Positions 1 to 42,106 of a stretch of DNA of 42,106 bases are shown piece after piece (position 1 is the first letter of the stretch; the number at the start of each line of letters is the position of its first letter). The notes below the pieces were generated by a model. That model ran no database searches, had not been told where the DNA came from, and saw only the letters and a program-made list of their open reading frames with translations. A program made the translations under genes and the position numbers. The DNA comes from Candidatus Pacearchaeota archaeon. Lineage in GTDB: Archaea; Nanobdellota; Nanobdellia; Pacearchaeales; GW2011-AR1. The stretch covers positions 1 through 42,106 of the forward strand of contig NYZR01000013.1 in NCBI GenBank assembly GCA_002687255.1. The letters are read 5' to 3'.

Positions 1-165
1 GGCGAGACGCTGGGCGCGTGGGCGTTGACCGAGCCGGCGGCCGGCAGCGACGCGGGCGCCACCCGCACCACGGCCGCTCGTGACGGCGAGACGTGGGTGC
101 TGAACGGCGTCAAGACCTTCACGACGCATGGCGGCCTCGGAGGCGTGATGGTGGTCGTGGCGGTG
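1..165 (+). CDS. acyl-CoA dehydrogenase fragment (partial, GC-rich, compositionally foreign)
   Basis: Frame 1 reads [44 protein letters not shown], containing the ACAD LTEPxAGSD motif. Composition is much more GC-rich than the rest of the window and changes abruptly near nt 165. Confidence 0.55.
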
Positions 166-609
166 ATCTTTCTGGTGTTCTTAGGGATTAGTTTAAGGAA
201 TCCTGTGGTTGAAGTGGGGAAGGAGAGTCGAGAGGTGCAGATGTTCTTGAGTTCTTTGCTGGATATAAGTTCGGATTGTGCTTTGGGCTTTGAGCCGAAT
301 TTTGCTGATGTGGATACGTTGATTAGTGAGTGTCATCAGAGTAGTGGGAAGAAGTGCGTGGATGATCGGAGGGTTTGCGATATTGCTGAGGAGGTTGTTG
401 GTGCTGCTCTAAAACAGGGTTGGCATGTGGGGAATGCAAGTGTGTTGAAAGGGTATGAGTTCGTGGTGGTGTATGCTACTAATGGGTCTGAGGATGTTTC
501 TGTTTTGGGTGTTTCTGAGGGGAATTGTGTTGGTGAAAAGAGTGGGGCGAGCACGGTTCGGCCGGCGTTTCCGGGGACTTTAGTGACGAAGATGGAGCTT
601 TGCTATTGA
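166..609 (+). CDS. hypothetical Cys-containing protein, 5'-truncated at the composition junction; paralog of 3881..4495 and 4565..5209
   Basis: Open frame continues to the stop at 609. It has a hydrophobic stretch (VIFLVFLGI) followed by a Cys-containing soluble part, similar in layout to the two neighbouring membrane-anchored ORFs. Confidence 0.4.
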
Positions 610-3880: not shown

Positions 3881-4495
3881 ATGAGAGCAGTTGGCACAGA
3901 AGCGCAGCTTGATCGGAGTAGAAAGCGGAATGGGATTATTATTAGTGTGTTGATGTTAGTGTTGTTGGTGGCTAGCTCTGTTGGGTTTGCTTTTCTTTCG
4001 AGTAATCATACGAGTGGTTCTCAGCAAGTTGCTGGGTCTGAGGGCGCTTATGAGGGTTCTGGTGTTGGGGGTTGGGTAGTTCCTGTTCTTGGTCGGGAAG
4101 TAAGGTTGACGTTTGGTCTTGAAGAAGTTGCTGAGATCCCTGTTGCTTTGACGACAGGTATAGAAGCGTATCAAGGGAAGACCTTGTATCTTGCGGTGGA
4201 GAATCCTGGGATCGAGGCAGAGTTGCGGAGCACTATTGGAGTCTTCACTGATCGGATTCAATTGGCTTGCTACGGGGAATGTGAGTTGGATTTGCCGGAG
4301 AAGGATTGTTCGGAGAACGTGATTGTCTGGACGGATGGCGTTGCCGAAGCAAGTTCGGCAGGCCCTCGCAGCTCGGACAAGGTGAACGCTGCTTCGGACG
4401 TTGGCGGGCAGGTGACGCAGGGAGAAGGGTGTGTGTTTATTGAAGGAGATTTAAGGGCTGTTGATGCTTTTCTTTATAAGGTGTTTGGTTACTAA
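3881..4495 (+). CDS. membrane-anchored hypothetical protein (possible class III/pilin-like signal KRNG-IIISVLMLVLLV) carrying an in-frame repeat insertion
   Basis: 204-aa ORF with a TATA at -25, an N-terminal TM segment and a Cys-containing ectodomain. Paralog of 4565..5209. Confidence 0.6.
   Translation: MRAVGTEAQLDRSRKRNGIIISVLMLVLLVASSVGFAFLSSNHTSGSQQVAGSEGAYEGSGVGGWVVPVLGREVRLTFGLEEVAEIPVALTTGIEAYQGKTLYLAVENPGIEAELRSTIGVFTDRIQLACYGECELDLPEKDCSENVIVWTDGVAEASSAGPRSSDKVNAASDVGGQVTQGEGCVFIEGDLRAVDAFLYKVFGY
4343..4399 (+). repeat. structured 57-nt repeat, copy E1 (in frame, 19 codons)
   Basis: GCCGAAGCAAGTTCGGCAGGCCCTCGCAGCTCGGACAAGGTGAACGCTGCTTCGGAC. Near-identical to 36926..36982, and its core is related to 27934..27998 and 12286..12320. 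Confidence 0.7.
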
Positions 4496-4564: not shown

Positions 4565-5209
4565 ATGGCGGCTAGAAAGAAGAAAGAAAAACCATTGTTG
4601 GCTAAAGAGACCAAACACATCTTGATCGGTCTTGCTGTTTTGGCGGTGTTGTTTTTGATTTTGACGTCGGTGTTTGGCAAGTTGGGGACGTTTGAGTATG
4701 AGGGTATGACGTTTGTTCAAGAGAAGTTTGGACAGTTGGATGTGTTCCGGTATACGTATTTTTATGAGGGGATTGAAGGAGATATTCTCCAGTATAACAT
4801 GTTCCTGCGGGTTGACCCTAGGACGAATGAGGTTCCGGTGACGGGCGAGATCGAGCTGCCGGCGAAGAGTCGGCAGATGTATGTGAGTATTGATACTACA
4901 GGGATGGCTCAGTGTGAGTTGAGTGCTGTAGGGATTTCTAGTTTGTCGGCGTTCTTGACGAATAATCAGTATCCTGTGAAGGGGGCGACGCCGTTTGAGG
5001 CAGAGGCGGAGTTGAGAGATATTCCTTTTGCTGACTGCCAGAGCCATCCGGAGAATGCTGTTTTCGTTGTGAAGACTGGTGATGAGACGAAGGTGGAGAA
5101 GCAAGGGAATTTCTGTTGGGTGTTGCAGGCTGCGGATTGTGAGATTGTTGAGGTAGTGGAGAAGTTTGAGGTTGAAACTATTATTCAGGCTAGGGCGAGA
5201 GAGGCTTAG
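4565..5209 (+). CDS. membrane-anchored hypothetical protein (paralog of 3881..4495)
   Basis: 214-aa ORF with a TATA-like AGATTTAAGA about 25 nt upstream, an N-terminal TM segment (ILIGLAVLAVLFLILTSVF) and conserved Cys spacing shared with the neighbour. Confidence 0.6.
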   Translation: MAARKKKEKPLLAKETKHILIGLAVLAVLFLILTSVFGKLGTFEYEGMTFVQEKFGQLDVFRYTYFYEGIEGDILQYNMFLRVDPRTNEVPVTGEIELPAKSRQMYVSIDTTGMAQCELSAVGISSLSAFLTNNQYPVKGATPFEAEAELRDIPFADCQSHPENAVFVVKTGDETKVEKQGNFCWVLQAADCEIVEVVEKFEVETIIQARAREA

Positions 5210-12250: not shown

Positions 12251-12336
12251 TTTAAAGATTTGTGTGATGAACGCAAATCCTAGACTCTCGCCGCTCACAC
12301 CTCATGAGCGCAGCATCGAGTTTAAAGATTTGTGTG
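12251..12336 (+). repeat. repeat copy E2 (54-nt insert) flanked by a perfect 16-bp direct duplication TTTAAAGATTTGTGTG
   Basis: Identical 16-mers lie at 12251-12266 and 12321-12336. The insert at 12267-12320 ends with CTCGCCGCTCACACCTCATGAGCGCAGCATCGAG, which matches 30/34 with the core of 27934..27998. Confidence 0.6.
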
Positions 12337-12400
12337 GTCTGAGATAGGAAAGAGATTATTTATGCTTTTGGTTTGCTTTGATTACCATAATATTTAAGAA

Positions 12401-12706
12401 ATGCTGTTTCCCTTTGTTTGTATGGCAAGCGATCTAACTTGTGCGGCATGCGAAGGCATTATCTCTGGGGGATATGTTATTGTTGGGCGTGCTGGCAGTC
12501 GTTCAGATTCAGGAGAGGTGGTGTTACATGCAGAATCATTGAGAGAGGAGGCCGAGGAGGTTGCTGTTACTTTGAAAGCTATGGAGGATCCTGGGAGTTG
12601 TATTGGAAGGTATATTCATGAAGATGACAGGCGAAATCTTTATCATCCTGAGGTTGTTCATTTTGATAGAGTTGGAGTTGGGCAGGGAACAGAAAGGGTA
12701 GTTTAG
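12401..12706 (+). CDS. hypothetical protein (start uncertain; possibly MASDLTCAACEG at 12422)
   Basis: 101-aa ORF convergent with prefoldin and overlapping it by 4 nt. No family recognised. Confidence 0.35.
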   Translation: MLFPFVCMASDLTCAACEGIISGGYVIVGRAGSRSDSGEVVLHAESLREEAEEVAVTLKAMEDPGSCIGRYIHEDDRRNLYHPEVVHFDRVGVGQGTERVV

Positions 12707-13886: not shown

Positions 13887-14141
13887 TTACATATTCCTCA
13901 GCCAGTAGATAACTTCTCTTACAGGGCGTGTTAGGTAAGTTACTGGTTTTGAATAGTTTTGACTCAGGTCTTGTTCAATCTCTTTTCTCGTTTGATTTCC
14001 CCTTATAACAGAATCTTCAAAAAGAATGTTTCCTGTAAATGTAACTGCTGTGGTTAGTGCTAAGAGAGAAAGTGTTGACGTGAGGAGGTTAGACCTCTGG
14101 TGCGTTTTTTTATCTTCTCTTGGGTTTTGTTCTTCTTCCAT
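13887..14141 (-). CDS. small membrane protein (start taken at MEEEQNPRED)
   Basis: 84-aa ORF with one TM segment (LLTSTLSLLALTTAVTF). The upstream part of the longer track ORF overlaps a GC-rich structured region. Confidence 0.4.
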   Translation of the reverse strand: MEEEQNPREDKKTHQRSNLLTSTLSLLALTTAVTFTGNILFEDSVIRGNQTRKEIEQDLSQNYSKPVTYLTRPVREVIYWLRNM

Positions 14142-14149
14142 GGTGTGTA

Positions 14150-14286
14150 TGGGGGGCTGCCGGGTGCTCGCTGACCTTCGGTCATCGGCAACCCCAACTC
14201 CTTTGGAGTGTGGGGTATTGTGAACCGGTGGCACGGCGTAAAATCGGGGAGCCGATTAGACCACCAACGAAGTTGTGTGGTCTCAA
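14150..14286 (-). ncRNA. candidate structured RNA / decayed tRNA-like sequence downstream of tRNA-Pro
   Basis: Locally GC-rich. Strong hairpins on the minus strand include ACCCCA-C-ACTCC-AAA-GGAGT-TGGGGT, TGACC-GAA-GGTCA, AATCGG-CTCC-CCGATT and a 9-bp GGGGTTGCC/GGCAGCCCC helix. It also contains tRNA-Pro-like pieces (TGGTCTAATCGG, CCGGTTCACAAT, CCCGGCAGCCCC). Confidence 0.25.
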
Positions 14287-14359
14287 TGGGGCTGCCCGGA
14301 TTTGAACCGGGGTCGGCAAGTCCCAAACCTGCAATCATACCAGACTAGACCACAGCCCC
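14287..14359 (-). tRNA. tRNA-Pro (anticodon UGG)
   Basis: GGGGCTG TG GTCT AGTCTGGTA TGAT T GCAGG TTTGGGA CTTGC CGAC CCCGG TTCAAAT CCGGG CAGCCCC A. Folds as a full cloverleaf of 73 nt, with no encoded CCA. Confidence 0.9.
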
Positions 14360-14462
14360 AATGAAATTAGTTGTTTGAGACAACAGGGCTTTTTAGCCCT
14401 GGGCATGAACACCCTAACCATTGTGGCAGGGTAGTTCAGGTGGTATAAAAAGCTTTGCTGGG

Positions 14463-14864
14463 TTATCTAATCAGTTTTACGATCTGATCTAACAGGAGTC
14501 GGTCTCCTGGGATAAGTTTGAGCTCTTTTGTTTCAGAGAGGTTCATGAACACTGCATTCCCCTCCGTGGCGTTAATCATTTCCTTTCCTGGCAGGGGTGC
14601 TAAGAACATGTTCCTTTCTGCCATAAGGTTATACCCAGGGATCTCTGACTCTGTCTTTTTGAAGAAAGTGAAGTGTTGAAGATCGAGGCCTAGTTCTTCC
14701 ATTATCTCTCTTTTCAATGCTTGCTCTGGAGTCTCTCCTTTCTCGATGCCTCCTCCGAAGAATCCATACTCTTCGCCCCATTTGCTTATTTCTCTTCTGT
14801 CTTGTAAGAGGAGGTTACCTTTATTGTCGTGGAAAAGAACAAGAGCCACTCTTCGTTTTTTCAT
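14463..14864 (-). CDS. NUDIX hydrolase
   Basis: Nudix box GGGIEKGETPEQALKREIMEELGL. Start taken at MKKRRVALVLF (14864), 1 nt after the L11 stop. The longer track ORF is a K/R-rich read-through overlapping rpl11. Confidence 0.8.
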   Translation of the reverse strand: MKKRRVALVLFHDNKGNLLLQDRREISKWGEEYGFFGGGIEKGETPEQALKREIMEELGLDLQHFTFFKKTESEIPGYNLMAERNMFLAPLPGKEMINATEGNAVFMNLSETKELKLIPGDRLLLDQIVKLIR

Positions 14865-21477: not shown

Positions 21478-21538
21478 GTTATTCATTACACTATTTCTTC
21501 TTCAGAGGTCTGAAAGATTTGCCTTGGCAGCCCTTGCA
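21478..21538 (-). repeat. displaced copy (A) of the rpl40e 3' end (last 15 codons + stop + 14 nt)
   Basis: 55/61 identical to 22491..22551. It encodes CKGCQGKSFRPLKKK-stop, and all 5 coding differences are synonymous. Confidence 0.8.
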
Positions 21539-21545
21539 AAAACAA

Positions 21546-22454
21546 TTATCCATCGAGATACTTCTCAACAATATACTGCACGAATTCCCTCTCGTCTTTT
21601 TCGATTTGGTAGAAGTCGAGGGCGTTGTAGTAGGCTTCGAGGTCGGTGACTGGGATGTCTATTGGAGGATAGTTTTTTTTCCAGAGGATCCAGTTCATGA
21701 GGAGTCGTGAGAGGCGGGAGTTGCCATCGACGAAGGGCTGGAGTGAGATGAGTTTTGCGTGCACGAGTGCGGCGAGTTCGAGCGGATGAAGTTTTCTCTG
21801 GTGTTGTGCATACCATGACAGAAATTGATCGAGTTCTTTTTCGACGTGTTGCCATTTGGGCGGCAGGTAAATCGTGCCTGCGATCTTCACGTCCCTCTTG
21901 AGTTCACTCCTGAATTTTCCGGCGATGCTGTCGTCTATCCCTGCGAGCAGTGTTTTGTGTAATTTTTTGAGGAAGGCTTTTGTGAGAGGGCCTATGTATT
22001 GGGTGATCATGAGAAACCCTTTCTCGTGGTTTTCGAGTTCTTTGGCGATGCGTAGCGATTTCATTTCCTTCGGGATGATCCCTTCCTTCAGGATGAGGAA
22101 TGTCTGTCTTAATGTGACTGGAACGCCGGAGAGTTTGCTACTGTCGTAGGTGTATCTGATCATGAACTCTTCTTGCTTTTGTTCTCTCTCGGTCTTGCTG
22201 AGTTTTTTGAGTTCCTTCTGGTATGTTTCCTTTTTGTTCTCTATGTTTTTGACTATGTCGTCAGATAGGTAACGATGATTGTCTTTTTTGATGTCGTTGA
22301 GAAATTCTTCTTTCATTTTTTTTAGGTCTTCTTCTGGTGGAAGGGTCTTGCCTATATACTTGCTCTTTTGTCTGATGTTCTTCCCCTCCCTTATGTTGTG
22401 GACGAGGATCCAATAGGATTTCCCTTTAGTTGTTATCTTTCTTGCAAAAACCAT
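21546..22454 (-). CDS. Fic/DOC family protein with a degenerate active-site motif (QPFVDGNSRLSR)
   Basis: The Fic core is recognisable. The start is set at MVFARK (22454), 26 nt from the TATA GTTTAAATAT. The canonical HPFxDGNGRxxR has His replaced by Gln and GNGR replaced by GNSR. Confidence 0.8.
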   Translation of the reverse strand: MVFARKITTKGKSYWILVHNIREGKNIRQKSKYIGKTLPPEEDLKKMKEEFLNDIKKDNHRYLSDDIVKNIENKKETYQKELKKLSKTEREQKQEEFMIRYTYDSSKLSGVPVTLRQTFLILKEGIIPKEMKSLRIAKELENHEKGFLMITQYIGPLTKAFLKKLHKTLLAGIDDSIAGKFRSELKRDVKIAGTIYLPPKWQHVEKELDQFLSWYAQHQRKLHPLELAALVHAKLISLQPFVDGNSRLSRLLMNWILWKKNYPPIDIPVTDLEAYYNALDFYQIEKDEREFVQYIVEKYLDG

Positions 22455-22490
22455 GGGAAAGTTATTCACTACAGATATTTAAACCTTTTG

Positions 22491-22551
22491 GTTAGTCATT
22501 ACACTACTTCTTTTTCAGCGGCCTGAAAGATTTGCCTTGGCAGCCTTTGCA
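22491..22551 (-). repeat. intact-gene copy (B) of the duplicated rpl40e 3' end
   Basis: Partner of 21478..21538. The two copies are spaced 1013 nt apart. Confidence 0.8.
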
Positions 22552-26841: not shown

Positions 26842-27948
26842 ATGGCCGAGGATGACGTTGTTGTTGAGTCACAAGAAGGGCCTCCGGCAGGGAGTGATAT
26901 CGATCAGGAATTGGAGAGTTTGTTGCAGCAGCAGAGCACTCGAGTGAAAGTGGTTGGGTGTGGTGGGGGTGGGGGCAACTGCGTAAGTCGGATGAAGGAG
27001 ATTGGTATTAAAGGGTGTGAGATTCTGGCCATTAATACGGATGCGCAGGACTTGTTGTATACGAATGTAGACGGGAAGATTCTTGTGGGGCGGGAGCTGA
27101 CAAGCGGTCTTGGAGCGGGGAGTAATCCGAAGATCGGAGAAGAGGCGGCTCGGGAGAGTGAGGCAGAGATTAAGAAGAAGTTGGCGAAGAGCGATATGGT
27201 CTTTATTACCTGCGGTTTGGGTGGAGGGACGGGCACCGGGGCGGCGCCGGTGGTTGCGGAGTTGGCGAAGAAAGGGGGGGCGTTGACGATTGGTGTAGTT
27301 ACCTTGCCGTTTACGGTTGAGGGGCAGAAGCGAATTGAGAACTCGCAGTATGGCCTGGATAAGATGGCTTCTACTTGTGATACCTTGATTGTGATTCCGA
27401 ATGATAAGTTGTTGGAGTTGGCTCCGGAGTTGCCCATTCATACGGCGTTTAAAGTGGCTGACGAGATTCTGACGAATGCGGTGAAGGGGATTACGGAGTT
27501 GATTACCAAGTCTGGTTTGGTGAATTTGGATTTTGCGGATGTGAAGGCGGTGATGTCTCATGGCGGCGTTTCTTTGATTGGTATTGGCGAGTCGGATACG
27601 CAGGAGCGGGCGAAGGATGCTGTGGATAAGGCGATTAACAATCCTTTACTTGATGTAGATATTTCTCAGGCTCAGGGGGCGTTGGTGAATATTATTGGAG
27701 GGAATGATATGTCGTTGGAAGAGTATAAGCAGGTGATGGAGGTGATCGGGACGAAGGTAGCGCCGGATGCGAAGTTGATTTCTGGGGCGCACATCTCGCC
27801 GGATTTGGAGAATACGATTAAGGTGTTGTTGATTGTGACTGGTGTAAAGAGTTCTCAGATTGTTGGGGCAGAGGATGGGATTGGGGTGAGTGAGACGCAG
27901 GCTTTGGAGAAGGAGTTGGGGATTGATTTCGTTGCCGATGATCGCTAG
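26842..27948 (+). CDS. ftsZ: cell division GTPase FtsZ
   Basis: GCGGGGGN, the tubulin signature [13 protein letters not shown], and NTDAQ. GGAAGGAG Shine-Dalgarno upstream. Confidence 0.95.
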
Positions 27949-27998
27949 GCGATCATCGGCTCCTCGCTGCTCACACCGCATGAGCGCAGCTTCGGATG
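27934..27998 (+). repeat. structured repeat copy E3 spanning the ftsZ stop codon
   Basis: GCCGATGATCGC-TAG-GCGATCATCGGC forms a perfect 12-bp stem with the stop codon in the loop. It is followed by TCCTCGCTGCTCACACCGCATGAGCGCAGCTTCGGATG, the core shared with E1, E2 and E4. Confidence 0.65.
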
Positions 27999-36892: not shown

Positions 36893-37654
36893 ATGTCGAG
36901 CGTTGTAAAGAAGATTTTTGACACTGCCGAAGCAAGTTCGGCAAGCCCTCGCAGCTCGGACTCTGTGAACGCTGCTTCAGATGGAGAAATTGATGAAGAG
37001 GTGCATGGGGCGTTGGTGAAATTTAGTAAGGGGTCTTTTCCGGATAGATGGTTAGTTGAGTCGAAGAAGCAGAAAGATAAGTGGGCGGTGAAGACGAGTG
37101 CGGAGTTTGCGAATTTTCTTGTTCGGGAATGTTTGCCTGCTGAGGGGAATGTGGAGGTGAAGGGTGTTGTTGTTTCTACGGAGAAGCTTGCTGATGTGTT
37201 GGATTTGCCTGTGGAGCGGGTGAAGCAGTTTATGGGAATCAAGCAGAATATTATTTCTGGGGAGATTGAAGTTGAGAAGATTCGGGAGGCTATGGAGAAA
37301 TACCCTCGGGCGTTTTTTGCGTTGTCGTTTTCTACGGATGATTGTGTCTTGAAGATCAAAGCAAAGGCACCGAAGAGTGCGAAGCCGAGCACGAAGGGCG
37401 ATAAGGAAGTGAAGATTGATTTTTGTTCGGTGAAGACGACTAACGAAGAGTTGGTGAGGGATTTGTTGTTCGATTGTCTTGCTGCGAAGCACGTGAGGGT
37501 GTCACATGAGTTTGTTATTTCTGAGATTGAGTTGCCTGCTGGTGTTGAGGATCCTGTGGAGATTCGAGAGAGGGCTGTTCGGAAGGGTGTGTTGAAGCGG
37601 ACTGTTGTTGCTGATGGTGCTGAGAAGCAGAGTGAAGCAGAGTTTGCTGCTTAG
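36893..37654 (+). CDS. hypothetical protein carrying repeat copy E4 near its N-terminus
   Basis: ATG lies about 25 nt downstream of GTTTTATAAAG. The 253-aa ORF has no recognised family. Confidence 0.55.
   Translation: MSSVVKKIFDTAEASSASPRSSDSVNAASDGEIDEEVHGALVKFSKGSFPDRWLVESKKQKDKWAVKTSAEFANFLVRECLPAEGNVEVKGVVVSTEKLADVLDLPVERVKQFMGIKQNIISGEIEVEKIREAMEKYPRAFFALSFSTDDCVLKIKAKAPKSAKPSTKGDKEVKIDFCSVKTTNEELVRDLLFDCLAAKHVRVSHEFVISEIELPAGVEDPVEIRERAVRKGVLKRTVVADGAEKQSEAEFAA
36926..36982 (+). repeat. structured 57-nt repeat, copy E4 (in frame, 19 codons)
   Basis: GCCGAAGCAAGTTCGGCAAGCCCTCGCAGCTCGGACTCTGTGAACGCTGCTTCAGAT. Encodes AEASSASPRSSDSVNAASD, against AEASSAGPRSSDKVNAASD in E1. Confidence 0.7.
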
Positions 37655-39890: not shown

Positions 39891-42106
39891 ATGATGTTGA
39901 AGAGGATTGCTCTGTTGGAAGTGTTCTTGTTAGTTGTGGCGACGTTTGCTTTTGCTTCGATTTTGTCTGATGCTTTTACAGGGTCTGTGGTTCCTGAGCA
40001 AGATCGGAAGAGGAGTTTGTTGCCGCCGTTGCTTTCTGGGCTGGGGAGATTGGTGTTTAGTGAAAGAGGACTTGTTTCGGCGTTAGAGGCGGATGACTTG
40101 CAAGAGGGAGCGCATACGTGTCTGCTTGGGAATGATGGGGCGTTCTGCCAAGAGTATATTGCTAGTGATTGCGCTGATGCGTGTTCTGAAGCATGTGTGC
40201 CGACGACTCGGGAGTTTGTCGCTGCGTGTAAGCCGGGGACGTGTTTCGATCCGGTTGAAGGGACTTGTCAAGCTGGAGCTCCGAGAGTGTTATGTGAGGA
40301 ACATGGAGGGGAATGGCTCGAAGACAGATTTGAGAATGTGGCACAGTGTCGGGAGGGCTGTTGTGTGTTGGGAGATCAGACAGATTTTACGACGGAACGG
40401 CAGTGCAGTCGGCAGAGCAATGTCTTAGGGGTTTCTTTTGATTATCGTCCGGAGATTCGGACGGAGATCGAATGTCTTGCTCTGGCGAGGACGCAAGAGG
40501 AAGGGGCGTGCGTTTTCGAAGAAACTGTTGATGGATTGGATCAGCGGAATTGTGTTTTCTCTACTCGGTCTGCGTGTCTTGCTGTTTCGGAGGCAGAGTT
40601 CCATCCCGGGCTGTTGTGCTCAAATCCAGAGCTAGGGACGATTTGTGTCCGGCAATCGAGCACCGCTTGTGTGGAGGATCGGGATGAAGTGTATTGGTTT
40701 GATAGCTGTGGTAATCGGGAGAACATTTATGATGCTAACAAGGCTGCGAGCTTCAACGACGGACGAGTGCAGCCCAAGAACGAGGCGTGTGAGTTGGTTG
40801 TTGGAGGGAATGAAGTCGCTCGGCAGAGCACGTGCGGGAATTGTAATTATTTGTTAGGGAGTAGGTGTGGGACTAGGGGTGGAGGTGAGAGACTTGCTGA
40901 TGGGTCTCAAGAAGTGGTGTGTCGTGCTTTAGGGTGTAAGGATGATCAGGGCAAGGAGCGAAAGAATGGAGAGAGTTGGTGTGTGTATCAGAGTAAGTTG
41001 GGGACGGATGGAAATCCTCCGGAGAGGTCTGTGGCTGTTCCGGGGAGTAGGCACTATCGGCAGGTGTGTCTTGATGGAGAGGTTCGGACGGAGCCGTGTG
41101 CTGATTTTCGGAATGGTATTTGTGTGGAAGATCGAGTTGACTTGCCTTCTGGTGGAGAGTTTGCGAACGCAGCCTGTCGGACGAACTTGTGGCAGCAGTG
41201 TTTGGATTACAACTCACAGATTGAGGATGATCCTGACGAAGGTGTTAGGTTATGTAATGAAAATCCGGATTGTTATATGAATGAAGTTAATCTTGTTCGA
41301 AAAGATAAGGATAATTTCAAGTTTAGCATGTGTGTGCCTGCGCATCCTGCAGGATTTAATTTGCGGACTCGAAATACCGGTCTGGGGGCTTCGGGGATTT
41401 GTGGGATTGCGAGCCAGACGTGCACATATTTTGAGGTTAAGACGCTGACTAGTGGGTGGAAGTGTAAGAGAAACTGTGCGTGTAAGGGGGCAGAGTTTAC
41501 CGAGGATATGCATGATCTGTGTATGTCGTTGGGAGATTGTGGAAGTTCTGTGAATTATGAAGGGACGTATACTAAGAATCATGGGGTTAAGGGGGGAGCT
41601 GATTTGGGAGGGAGTTATGTGAATCGGTTACAGACTTATGATGATGTTGATGCTGGAGAGTATTTGGAGGCTGATTTTGCTGCTCTGTTGGGGATTTTGA
41701 GTGGGGCTCCTGGGGTTGGAGAGGGGATTGGTGAGCCGGAGGCTCCGGAGGATGAGACCAAGGATGAGAGGAGGATTATCCTTCATACTTCTGGAGGGGT
41801 GGGTGTTGCTCTTGCTTCACTGGCCTACATTGCTCCTGCTGCGTTTGGTTCTGTTGGGCTTGGTGCTGGAAGCGTCCTTTCAGCCCTGGGCATACATGGG
41901 GGTGGATTTGGTCTTGGAGCCAGTCCGACCTTTGGTGGTGTTGGATTCGGAGGGGCAGCGATGGGCGCTGCTGTAGGATTTGCTGTTACTGGTCTTCTGA
42001 TTAATATGCTTGGGATAGGGCCTGGTTTAGATCAGGGGGTTGCCTATACCTTGATTGCTGCGGGAGCTCTTGCAGGTGGTGCTCTTGGTTTGGGTGTTGC
42101 TGGGGC
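39891..42106 (+). CDS. large Cys-rich secreted protein followed by a Gly-rich hydrophobic region (3'-partial, runs off the window)
   Basis: The ATG immediately follows the TAG of the previous gene, and the frame stays open to the window end (not in the track). Signal/anchor is MMLKRIALLEVFLLVVATFAFA. There are dozens of Cys in CxxxC/CxC contexts, then GVGVALASLAYIAPAAFGSVGLGAG... Confidence 0.65.
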   Translation, partial: MMLKRIALLEVFLLVVATFAFASILSDAFTGSVVPEQDRKRSLLPPLLSGLGRLVFSERGLVSALEADDLQEGAHTCLLGNDGAFCQEYIASDCADACSEACVPTTREFVAACKPGTCFDPVEGTCQAGAPRVLCEEHGGEWLEDRFENVAQCREGCCVLGDQTDFTTERQCSRQSNVLGVSFDYRPEIRTEIECLALARTQEEGACVFEETVDGLDQRNCVFSTRSACLAVSEAEFHPGLLCSNPELGTICVRQSSTACVEDRDEVYWFDSCGNRENIYDANKAASFNDGRVQPKNEACELVVGGNEVARQSTCGNCNYLLGSRCGTRGGGERLADGSQEVVCRALGCKDDQGKERKNGESWCVYQSKLGTDGNPPERSVAVPGSRHYRQVCLDGEVRTEPCADFRNGICVEDRVDLPSGGEFANAACRTNLWQQCLDYNSQIEDDPDEGVRLCNENPDCYMNEVNLVRKDKDNFKFSMCVPAHPAGFNLRTRNTGLGASGICGIASQTCTYFEVKTLTSGWKCKRNCACKGAEFTEDMHDLCMSLGDCGSSVNYEGTYTKNHGVKGGADLGGSYVNRLQTYDDVDAGEYLEADFAALLGILSGAPGVGEGIGEPEAPEDETKDERRIILHTSGGVGVALASLAYIAPAAFGSVGLGAGSVLSALGIHGGGFGLGASPTFGGVGFGGAAMGAAVGFAVTGLLINMLGIGPGLDQGVAYTLIAAGALAGGALGLGVAG

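Follow-up and report, generated by a model that had tools for sequence, protein, structure and literature searches.

Very small non-coding mobile elements, probably copied from their 3' end, in genes and a promoter region of a marine Pacearchaeota genome

A 42,106-nt stretch of DNA (contig NYZR01000013.1 of assembly GCA_002687255.1, the whole of which is called the window here), derived from a metagenome-assembled genome (MAG) of a marine Candidatus Pacearchaeota of the DPANN archaea, was analysed with respect to a short hairpin-rich repeat. Four copies of this repeat (c1 to c4) are found in the window and all four are lineage-specific insertions. Together with a fifth copy (L131) on the TARA contig CEPX01397347.1, they probably constitute a family of very small, non-coding and non-autonomous mobile DNA elements that are copied from their 3' end, either by target-primed copying or by template switching. 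DPANN archaea have tiny, gene-dense genomes which are usually described as poor in mobile DNA. A coding-tolerated miniature mobile element was among the options offered by a previous reading of the window made from the sequence alone (the sequence-only reading), and it is the one that has stood, with four copies missing at orthologous sites and one of them being intergenic.

The copies are linked by a 32-nt core, CTCGCNGCTCNNACNNNNTGANCGCNGCNTCG, which matches the window four times (at 4365, 12287, 27963 and 36948), always on the + strand, compared with 0.00 matches expected in shuffled sequences. The near-identical in-frame copy at 36926-36982 and the diverged copies at 27934 and about 12267 listed by the sequence-only reading were thereby recovered, the first being identical to c1 at 51/57 positions and the other two sharing the core. 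No further copy was detected in the window by nhmmer or with a covariance model. The element is 56-64 nt in size, has no open reading frame (ORF) of its own and gives insertions of 60, 60, 61 and 70 nt at c1, c2, c3 and c4 respectively. The full-length unit is composed of a 5' hairpin with the base GCCGA/TCGGC and a variable top, a conserved 8-bp bulged 3' hairpin and the short tail TTCGGA. Copies c1-c3 have GCCGA at their start; their end is TTCGGA or differs slightly from it, being TTCAGA in c2 and, in c3, TTCG directly against the target's GA. The 3' end is common to all five copies. Terminal inverted repeats of 8 nt are present in c1 and c2, a weak one of about 5 nt in c3 and none in c4 or L131. 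Based on their cores, c1, c2 and L131 form subfamily A (29/32 identical positions between c2 and L131) and c3 and c4 subfamily B (29/32), with 23/32 identical positions between A and B. No similarity of the core to the two tRNA genes or to the rest of the window was observed, and a tRNA or local origin was rejected.

Copy c1 (4343..4399, + strand), a full-length unit of subfamily A, lies in frame in the gene 3881..4495 (+ strand), which encodes a conserved membrane-anchored protein of Pacearchaeota without Pfam family, identical to the hypothetical protein CMI48_01755 of a Candidatus Pacearchaeota MAG (locus-tag prefix CMI48). The 57 nt, GCCGAAGCAAGTTCGGCAGGCCCTCGCAGCTCGGACAAGGTGAACGCTGCTTCGGAC, encode the 19 residues AEASSAGPRSSDKVNAASD, and in this respect sequence and translation agree with the sequence-only reading, as they do for the hairpin GCCGAA-GCAAG-TTCGGC, the stem GCAGC...GCTGC and the 8-nt inverted repeats (CCGAAGCA/TGCTTCGG), all of which are present. 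The 17-nt 5' hairpin (4343..4359, + strand), whose left part CCGAAGCA doubles as the left terminal inverted repeat, is repeated exactly at 36926. The conserved core hairpin (4368..4392, + strand) consists of 5 bp GCAGC/GCTGC, a 2-nt 3' bulge and then 2-3 bp, with the tail TTCGGA (4393-4398, + strand) directly 3' of it.

Comparison with orthologues, which do not have the segment, supports the proposed insertion at c1 but not its length, the insertion being 60 nt (20 codons) rather than 57. It extends over 4343-4402 or over any register inside a 5-nt repeat, CGTTG, found at the left (4339..4343, + strand) and, 60 nt further 3', at the right junction (4399..4403, + strand), where it represents a short target duplication or microhomology. 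The 57 homologues of the host protein have 160-201 aa compared with 204 aa in the window, and the 20 extra residues, VAEASSAGPRSSDKVNAASD, are absent from 14/14 aligned homologues, one of them at 77% identity. The syntenic relative L123 has an empty c1 site at the DNA level. The insertion call thus holds with these 14 homologues and L123, and the adjacent ORF 4565..5209, originally taken as a paralog and alignment partner, has to be given up since its homology to 3881..4495 is not significant (BLASTP E = 0.05-0.06). In the structure model (mean predicted local distance difference test score, pLDDT, of 65) the insert is a predicted coil between two strands with a pLDDT <50, suggesting an unstructured loop.

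Copy c2 (36926..36982, + strand), also a full-length unit of subfamily A, is inserted in frame after codon 11 of the gene 36893..37654 (+ strand). This gene encodes a leaderless 253-aa protein (ATG at 36893), which belongs to a conserved protein of about 235 aa without Pfam family. Three or four extra bases, (C)ACT, precede the element (36922/36923-36925) and bring the total insertion to 60 nt. Neither 12 homologues nor the orthologue encoded by the syntenic contig L138 have the 20 residues concerned, which are located after KKIF.

Copy c3 (27934..27994, + strand; 61 nt), a full-length unit of subfamily B, is located at the 3' end of ftsZ (26842..27948, + strand), with GTT on its left and GATGAT on its right, so that the last four codons and the stop codon of this gene now come from the element and FtsZ ends in ADDR* in place of DDDDR*. 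The new stop codon lies in the 5' hairpin, a perfect 12-bp stem, GCCGATGATCGC-TAG-GCGATCATCGGC (+ strand), and most of c3, including the core hairpin (27966-27990, + strand), is found behind this stop codon of its own making and read in another frame. Copy c3 is absent in L133, L134 and L135, where FtsZ is 96% identical and ends in ...DFVDDDR* (DNA GTG GAT GAT GAT AGG TAA); in the window, GTT stands on the 5' side of c3 and GAT GAT GAC GAC AGG TAA on its 3' side. Two other assemblies (L136 and L137) contain c3.

Copy c4 (12267..12320, + strand) is a 5'-truncated, intergenic member of subfamily B situated upstream of the sepF promoter. A 16-nt target-site duplication, TTTAAAGATTTGTGTG (12251..12266 and 12321..12336, + strand; 16/16 identical), brackets it, and the left copy of this duplication includes the sepF TATA box (minus-strand reading). 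The relative L123 has a single CTATATAAAGATTTATATG at its empty c4 site, compared with two TTTAAAGATTTGTGTG separated by 54 nt in the window. The total insertion, including the 16-nt duplication, is therefore 70 nt and the TATA region of sepF is duplicated. At its 5' side c4 opens with the filler ATGA. This is followed by an inverted and imperfect target copy, ACGCAAATC-CTAGACTC, which matches the reverse complement of tail plus target at 14/18 positions with one gap, then by the core hairpin (12290-12314) and finally by the tail ATCGAG. Next to c4, at 12337-12702, the window also has about 340 bases more than L123 between the sepF promoter and prefoldin; these bases hold a small + strand gene (12422..12706) without Pfam family and a remnant of the prefoldin 3' end (GATTATTTATGCTTTTGGTTT, 12353-12373), and this segment is a second insertion, unrelated to c4.

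The fifth copy, L131, is probably a lineage-specific insertion as well. Its core lies in frame and in sense orientation in a gene of the arginase/agmatinase family, the family having been assigned by a PDB search with the host, whose N-terminus is too diverged in the PDB alignment for independent confirmation of the insertion. A perfect 15-nt direct repeat, TTCGAAAAAAGCTGA (15/15), stands on both sides of it with a spacing of 60 nt, and an inverted target copy (10/12) is present. The contig resembles the window in its composition (46% GC) and has the same G+T-rich strand asymmetry, with a skew of +0.35. Both c4 and L131 are devoid of the 5' hairpin, break exactly at the base of the core hairpin and share the same layout from 5' to 3', namely the duplicated target, 4-7 extra bases, an inverted target copy abutting the core, the core and the target again. 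In both, the inverted target copy prolongs the core hairpin into the flank and is less faithful than the duplication (14/18 and 10/12 compared with 16/16 and 15/15).

The empty-site relatives are therefore L123 for c1 and c4, L138 for c2 and L133, L134 and L135 for c3, and no element copy was found in about 40 kb of syntenic DNA of three relatives with nhmmer and the covariance model R1. Conservation of the segment as protein at the same sites in relatives was also looked for and the data show the opposite. At third codon positions of ftsZ, the window and a relative without c3 are only 63% identical (37% differ), compared with a difference of 10% between c1 and c2, which places the activity of the element after the split from those relatives. 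Outside the window, a scan of metagenome contigs with a 21-base fixed pattern returned the genuine L131 together with two random high-GC matches (L130 and L132). The same collection did not return the window's own short TARA contigs, which implies a poor coverage of the organism. The pattern CTCGCNGCTCN{6,10}TGANCGCNGCNTC, used to scan genome contigs, was too permissive and gave at least 116 single random matches in high-GC bacteria (L001-L116, considered as noise), and no match was obtained in viral contigs. A protein search with the concatenated six-frame peptides of the element yielded nothing at E <= 10 and missed even the known host, because matches of 12-19 residues are below significance in a database of 5.8 billion sequences; this search was consequently blind.

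The consensus fold of the copies comprises 12 pairs. Eight of them form a hairpin (5 bp and 3 bp, with a 2-nt bulge between them on the 3' side) and four form the lower stem, which a 2x3 internal loop separates from the hairpin; RNAalifold independently returned the structure drawn by eye. The proportion of paired cells is 91.7% compared with 23-53% when the partners are slid, and pair 14-34 changes from A-U to U-A between the subfamilies. Since tail and flank make up the 3' half of the lower stem, this stem covaries with the flank. When compared to shuffled sequence, c3 and c4 fold better (z = -2.8 and -4.2) and c1 and c2 do not (z = -0.05 and -0.59). A K-turn, a C/D-box RNA and a CRISPR repeat were rejected upon inspection, since tandem G-A pairs, C/D boxes in register and an array are all lacking.

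The junctions are heterogeneous. Target duplications amount to about 4-5 nt in c1, 0-3 nt in c2, 0-6 nt in c3, 16 nt in c4 and 15 nt in L131, implying insertion at the DNA level, and their spread from 0 to 16 nt does not fit a transposase of fixed stagger. At the 5' junction filler bases are present in c2 (CACT), c4 (ATGA) and L131 (GGGGGGC) and absent in the two others. At the 3' junction the tail and the target overlap by 0-6 nt of microhomology, the host sequence of L131 having already read TTCGAA. Taken together, the shared 3' end, the truncation at the hairpin base, the variable duplications, microhomology and filler and the poor inverted target copy form a signature of copying from the 3' end followed by end joining of the polymerase type. 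A casposon or Cas1-type integration, which the 15-16-nt duplications had brought to mind, was rejected in view of the 0-6 nt found in c1-c3.

The sense strand of the element is the G+T-rich strand in 5/5 copies. The G+T-rich strand is presumably the leading-strand sequence, in which case this orientation fits priming by nascent lagging strands. The strand asymmetry of the window, with a positive GC skew and a negative AT skew in every 2-kb bin whatever the gene orientation (+0.21 and -0.17 overall), is unusually strong for an archaeon.

In the proposed mechanism, a new copy would be synthesised from the 3' end of the element. Its template would be the sense strand, as RNA or as single-stranded DNA, and its primer a 3'-OH of the target, for instance at a nick or on a nascent lagging strand. 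The new strand could then fold at the core hairpin, snap back and copy the target, after which a few untemplated bases would be added and the strand joined to the upstream DNA. The enzyme would act in trans, from outside the window, and the process would be closer to target-primed reverse transcription or to synthesis-dependent microhomology-mediated end joining than to a fixed-stagger cut. In a gene-dense genome, the intragenic copies that survive would be expected to keep the frame without stops (60, 60 and 60 nt) or to sit at the very end of a gene, the common length and open frame being attributed to selection inside genes. Such survivors would add a disordered, Ser/Ala-rich loop of 20 residues to their hosts.

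Several observations weigh against copying from the 3' end. The key junction features are found in only two of the five known copies, and the break point common to both truncated copies is equally well explained by a separate short source element. A clean 8-nt inverted repeat in c1 and c2 and a 4-5-nt direct repeat at c1 are as in a conventional miniature inverted-repeat transposable element (MITE). The presence of all five copies on the same strand has a probability of about 1 in 16 by chance and is confounded with gene orientation, the four genic copies all being sense; the covariation amounts to one or two independent events; and the empty sites cover c1-c4 only. Finally, no transposase, integrase, reverse transcriptase or HUH nuclease was found among the 30 window ORFs scanned (42 kb).

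A more specific form of 3'-end copying is proposed only tentatively, namely that the element is the first target-primed 'hairpin retroposon' of an archaeon, similar to a short interspersed nuclear element (SINE), or its DNA equivalent, spreading as nascent strands switch template at replication forks. A bulged hairpin of about 35 nt with its tail would here be copied onto a target 3'-OH, followed by snap-back, untemplated addition and joining. It is likewise possible, with the balance rather against it, that this represents a mobility mechanism so far undescribed in prokaryotes. Snap-back and templated junction synthesis as such have precedents (PMC4912351, PMC5728401, bioRxiv 10.1101/2022.03.14.484287).

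Among the alternatives to copying from the 3' end, a classical MITE comes next, although it is judged rather unlikely. The element would then be an internally deleted derivative of an insertion sequence (IS), with a DDE transposase recognising (G/T)CCGAAGCA...TGCTTCGG(A) in trans, and c4 and L131 would be aberrant or one-ended products repaired by the host. The small size (56-70 nt), the lack of an ORF, the five copies whose presence varies by strain, the defined ends shared by c1-c3 (5' GCCGA, 3' TTCGGA), the inverted repeats of 8 nt in c1 and c2 and 5 nt in c3 and the CGTTG direct repeat at c1 are all as expected of such an element. On the other hand, the duplications vary in length (about 4-5, 0-3, 0-6, 16 and 15 nt), c4 and L131 have target-derived inverted copies in place of the left inverted repeat, the c2 junction contains filler and the 42 kb are without a transposase gene. 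The MITE-like character ascribed to the repeat by the sequence-only reading is thus retained in part: the inverted repeats of c1 and c2 agree with it, that of c3 is weak, and c4, L131 and the duplications of 0-16 nt do not fit.

A single-strand DNA element of the IS200/IS605 or REP-RAYT type (PATE-like), inserted into the lagging-strand template by a Y1/HUH transposase, is improbable. Two imperfect hairpins, one of them bulged, the CGTT that precedes both c1 and c3 and the location of 5/5 copies on one compositional strand (a small sample, confounded with gene orientation) would agree with it. However, the two hairpins are dissimilar, no target tetranucleotide is common to the 5' sides (CGTT, CACT, TGTG, CTGA) and the REP tags GTAG and CGTC are absent. 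Insertion in the IS200/IS605 family occurs without target duplication, in contrast to the perfect 16- and 15-nt duplications of c4 and L131.

Still less credence is given to events at the RNA level, that is, to an intervening sequence removed for example by the archaeal splicing endonuclease, or to a functional structured RNA or cis-regulatory motif; an intervening sequence and a structured RNA motif had been suggested by the sequence-only reading. The genic copies are all sense, the 60-nt length preserves the frame and the hairpin is conserved with one compensatory change. However, no bulge-helix-bulge, with its two 3-nt bulges on opposite strands around a 4-bp helix, was found at any copy boundary when all registers were scanned (none with 4/4 central pairs and both flanking helices). 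In the consensus, by contrast, the 2-nt bulge occurs together with a 2x3 internal loop, and on the same strand. The intervening-sequence reading is thus unsupported, also because two copies lie outside coding sequence, where frame is irrelevant: c4 is in a promoter region and c3 mostly past a self-made stop. Nothing is common to the positions within genes, and frame conservation is accounted for by selection. As for a known structured RNA, Rfam 15 gave no match to the whole window or to the element alone at the gathering threshold or at E up to 10, except for a meaningless mir-598 hit of 17 bits, and c1 and c2 fold like shuffled sequence. The weakest alternative, in which there is no element but a shared Ser/Ala-rich protein linker acquired convergently or through domain shuffling, or else an artefact of assembly, could invoke the low complexity of the encoded peptide and the chimeric left end of the window as a sign of a partly flawed assembly, but it is refuted by conservation at the nucleotide level that includes the non-coding, intergenic c4 and c3 in another frame behind a stop, and by the recurrence of the same insertions in independent assemblies (TARA scaffolds, MEGAHIT and SPAdes assemblies and the NCBI record).

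With genes for S-layer protein, FtsZ, SepF, prefoldin, L1/L10/L11/L12, aIF5A and a Fic protein, the window is otherwise ordinary for the chromosome of a DPANN archaeon, and its genes are carried by TARA Oceans contigs. Its left end is most likely a chimeric contig end: positions 1-143 have 76% GC and encode a peptide resembling acyl-CoA dehydrogenase fused to the archaeal ORF 25..609, and the TARA scaffold L126 has an unrelated sequence of 44% GC at the same locus, identity starting at about 146 at a short shared GTGATGGTGGTCGTGG. A gene of the Fic/DOC family (21546..22469, minus strand) lies between the two copies of a 61-nt direct repeat of 90% identity (21478-21538 and 22491-22551), of which the right one overlaps the 3' end of a small Zn-ribbon-like gene on the minus strand; this arrangement resembles a gene cassette that was integrated with duplication of its attachment site. 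The ORF of ribosomal protein L11 (14866-15612, minus strand) encodes 248 aa with Pfam L11 domains only over residues 3-133; the L11 gene of the relative L138 encodes 223 aa, and L11 in these archaea has a C-terminal extension of about 60-100 residues. Contig L138 also carries two LAGLIDADG homing-endonuclease ORFs (2161-2970 and 13899-14474) amid ribosomal-protein genes, which are absent from the window, indicating that several kinds of mobile DNA vary among these co-occurring Pacearchaeota strains. A long ORF for a cysteine-rich secreted or membrane protein (39891-42106) is open at the right end of the window.

These results reveal a mini-element active in a DPANN genome since its split from related, co-occurring strains, which has altered proteins, among them FtsZ in its C-terminal tail, and duplicated the sepF promoter. 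They provide a natural example of selfish DNA making protein insertions and promoter duplications. In practice, Ser/Ala-rich inserts of 20 residues in metagenome proteins are to be recognised as element-derived and the element can serve as a strain-level marker in TARA Oceans data. Should 3'-end copying with snap-back be true, it would be a mechanism not known for prokaryotic miniature elements and would offer a handle on the polymerase or reverse transcriptase behind such joins in archaea. The hairpin retroposon, if real, would operate in an ultra-small DPANN genome in which most landing sites are genes.

Archaeal bulge-helix-bulge introns, which include the cbf5 mRNA intron, are likewise short intervening segments with hairpins in archaeal genes. 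The present element differs from them (for context see PMC6125680) in having no bulge-helix-bulge motif and in having copies outside transcribed coding sequence. The archaeal MITEs, such as the SM elements of Sulfolobus and those of Haloquadratum and Halobacterium, are about 80-350 bp long and mostly intergenic, can be traced to particular IS families and duplicate the target over a fixed length (PMC10969869). The element shares with them an archaeal host, a non-autonomous and multicopy nature and, in c1 and c2, terminal inverted repeats, but not the duplication length, which here ranges from 0 to 16 nt.

To our knowledge, no retroposon of the target-primed or SINE type is known in archaea. 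Target-primed retroposons (non-long-terminal-repeat and SINE elements) and endonuclease-independent retrotransposition of group II introns at forks nevertheless resemble the element in the common 3' end, 5' truncation (two copies, at the same point), variable duplications, 3' microhomology, untemplated 5' bases and a strand bias relative to replication. This likeness concerns the junction anatomy of five DNA copies, and in contrast to the usual product of twin priming it is the target and not the element that is copied in inverse. In synthesis-dependent microhomology-mediated end joining, snap-back synthesis is carried out by Pol theta or by group II intron-like reverse transcriptases. The scars of this process (PMC4912351, PMC5728401, PMC2943611; for a group II intron-like reverse transcriptase in repair, bioRxiv 10.1101/2022.03.14.484287) have a flank copied both directly and inverted, short untemplated runs and microhomology, which is the anatomy of c4 and L131. 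Those scars, however, are one-off events, whereas here the same conserved hairpin core is delivered at each site, which implies a self-propagating unit.

Of the phenomena already known, the spread of Rickettsia palindromic elements and other intragenic MITEs while keeping the reading frame (PMC10969869) comes closest. Rickettsia palindromic elements are bacterial, about 100-150 bp long and ancient, being shared between species. As with these, a short palindromic non-coding repeat without transposase of its own is found in frame in unrelated protein genes (often essential ones in Rickettsia) of a reduced genome, with a tolerated peptide. Three copies (c1, c2 and L131) are indeed in-frame genic insertions of 60 nt each, and c3 lies at the terminus of ftsZ. 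The element is set apart from its Rickettsia counterparts by its size (56-64 nt) and its archaeal (DPANN) host, by being strain-specific, and by its heterogeneous junctions with target-derived inverted copies.

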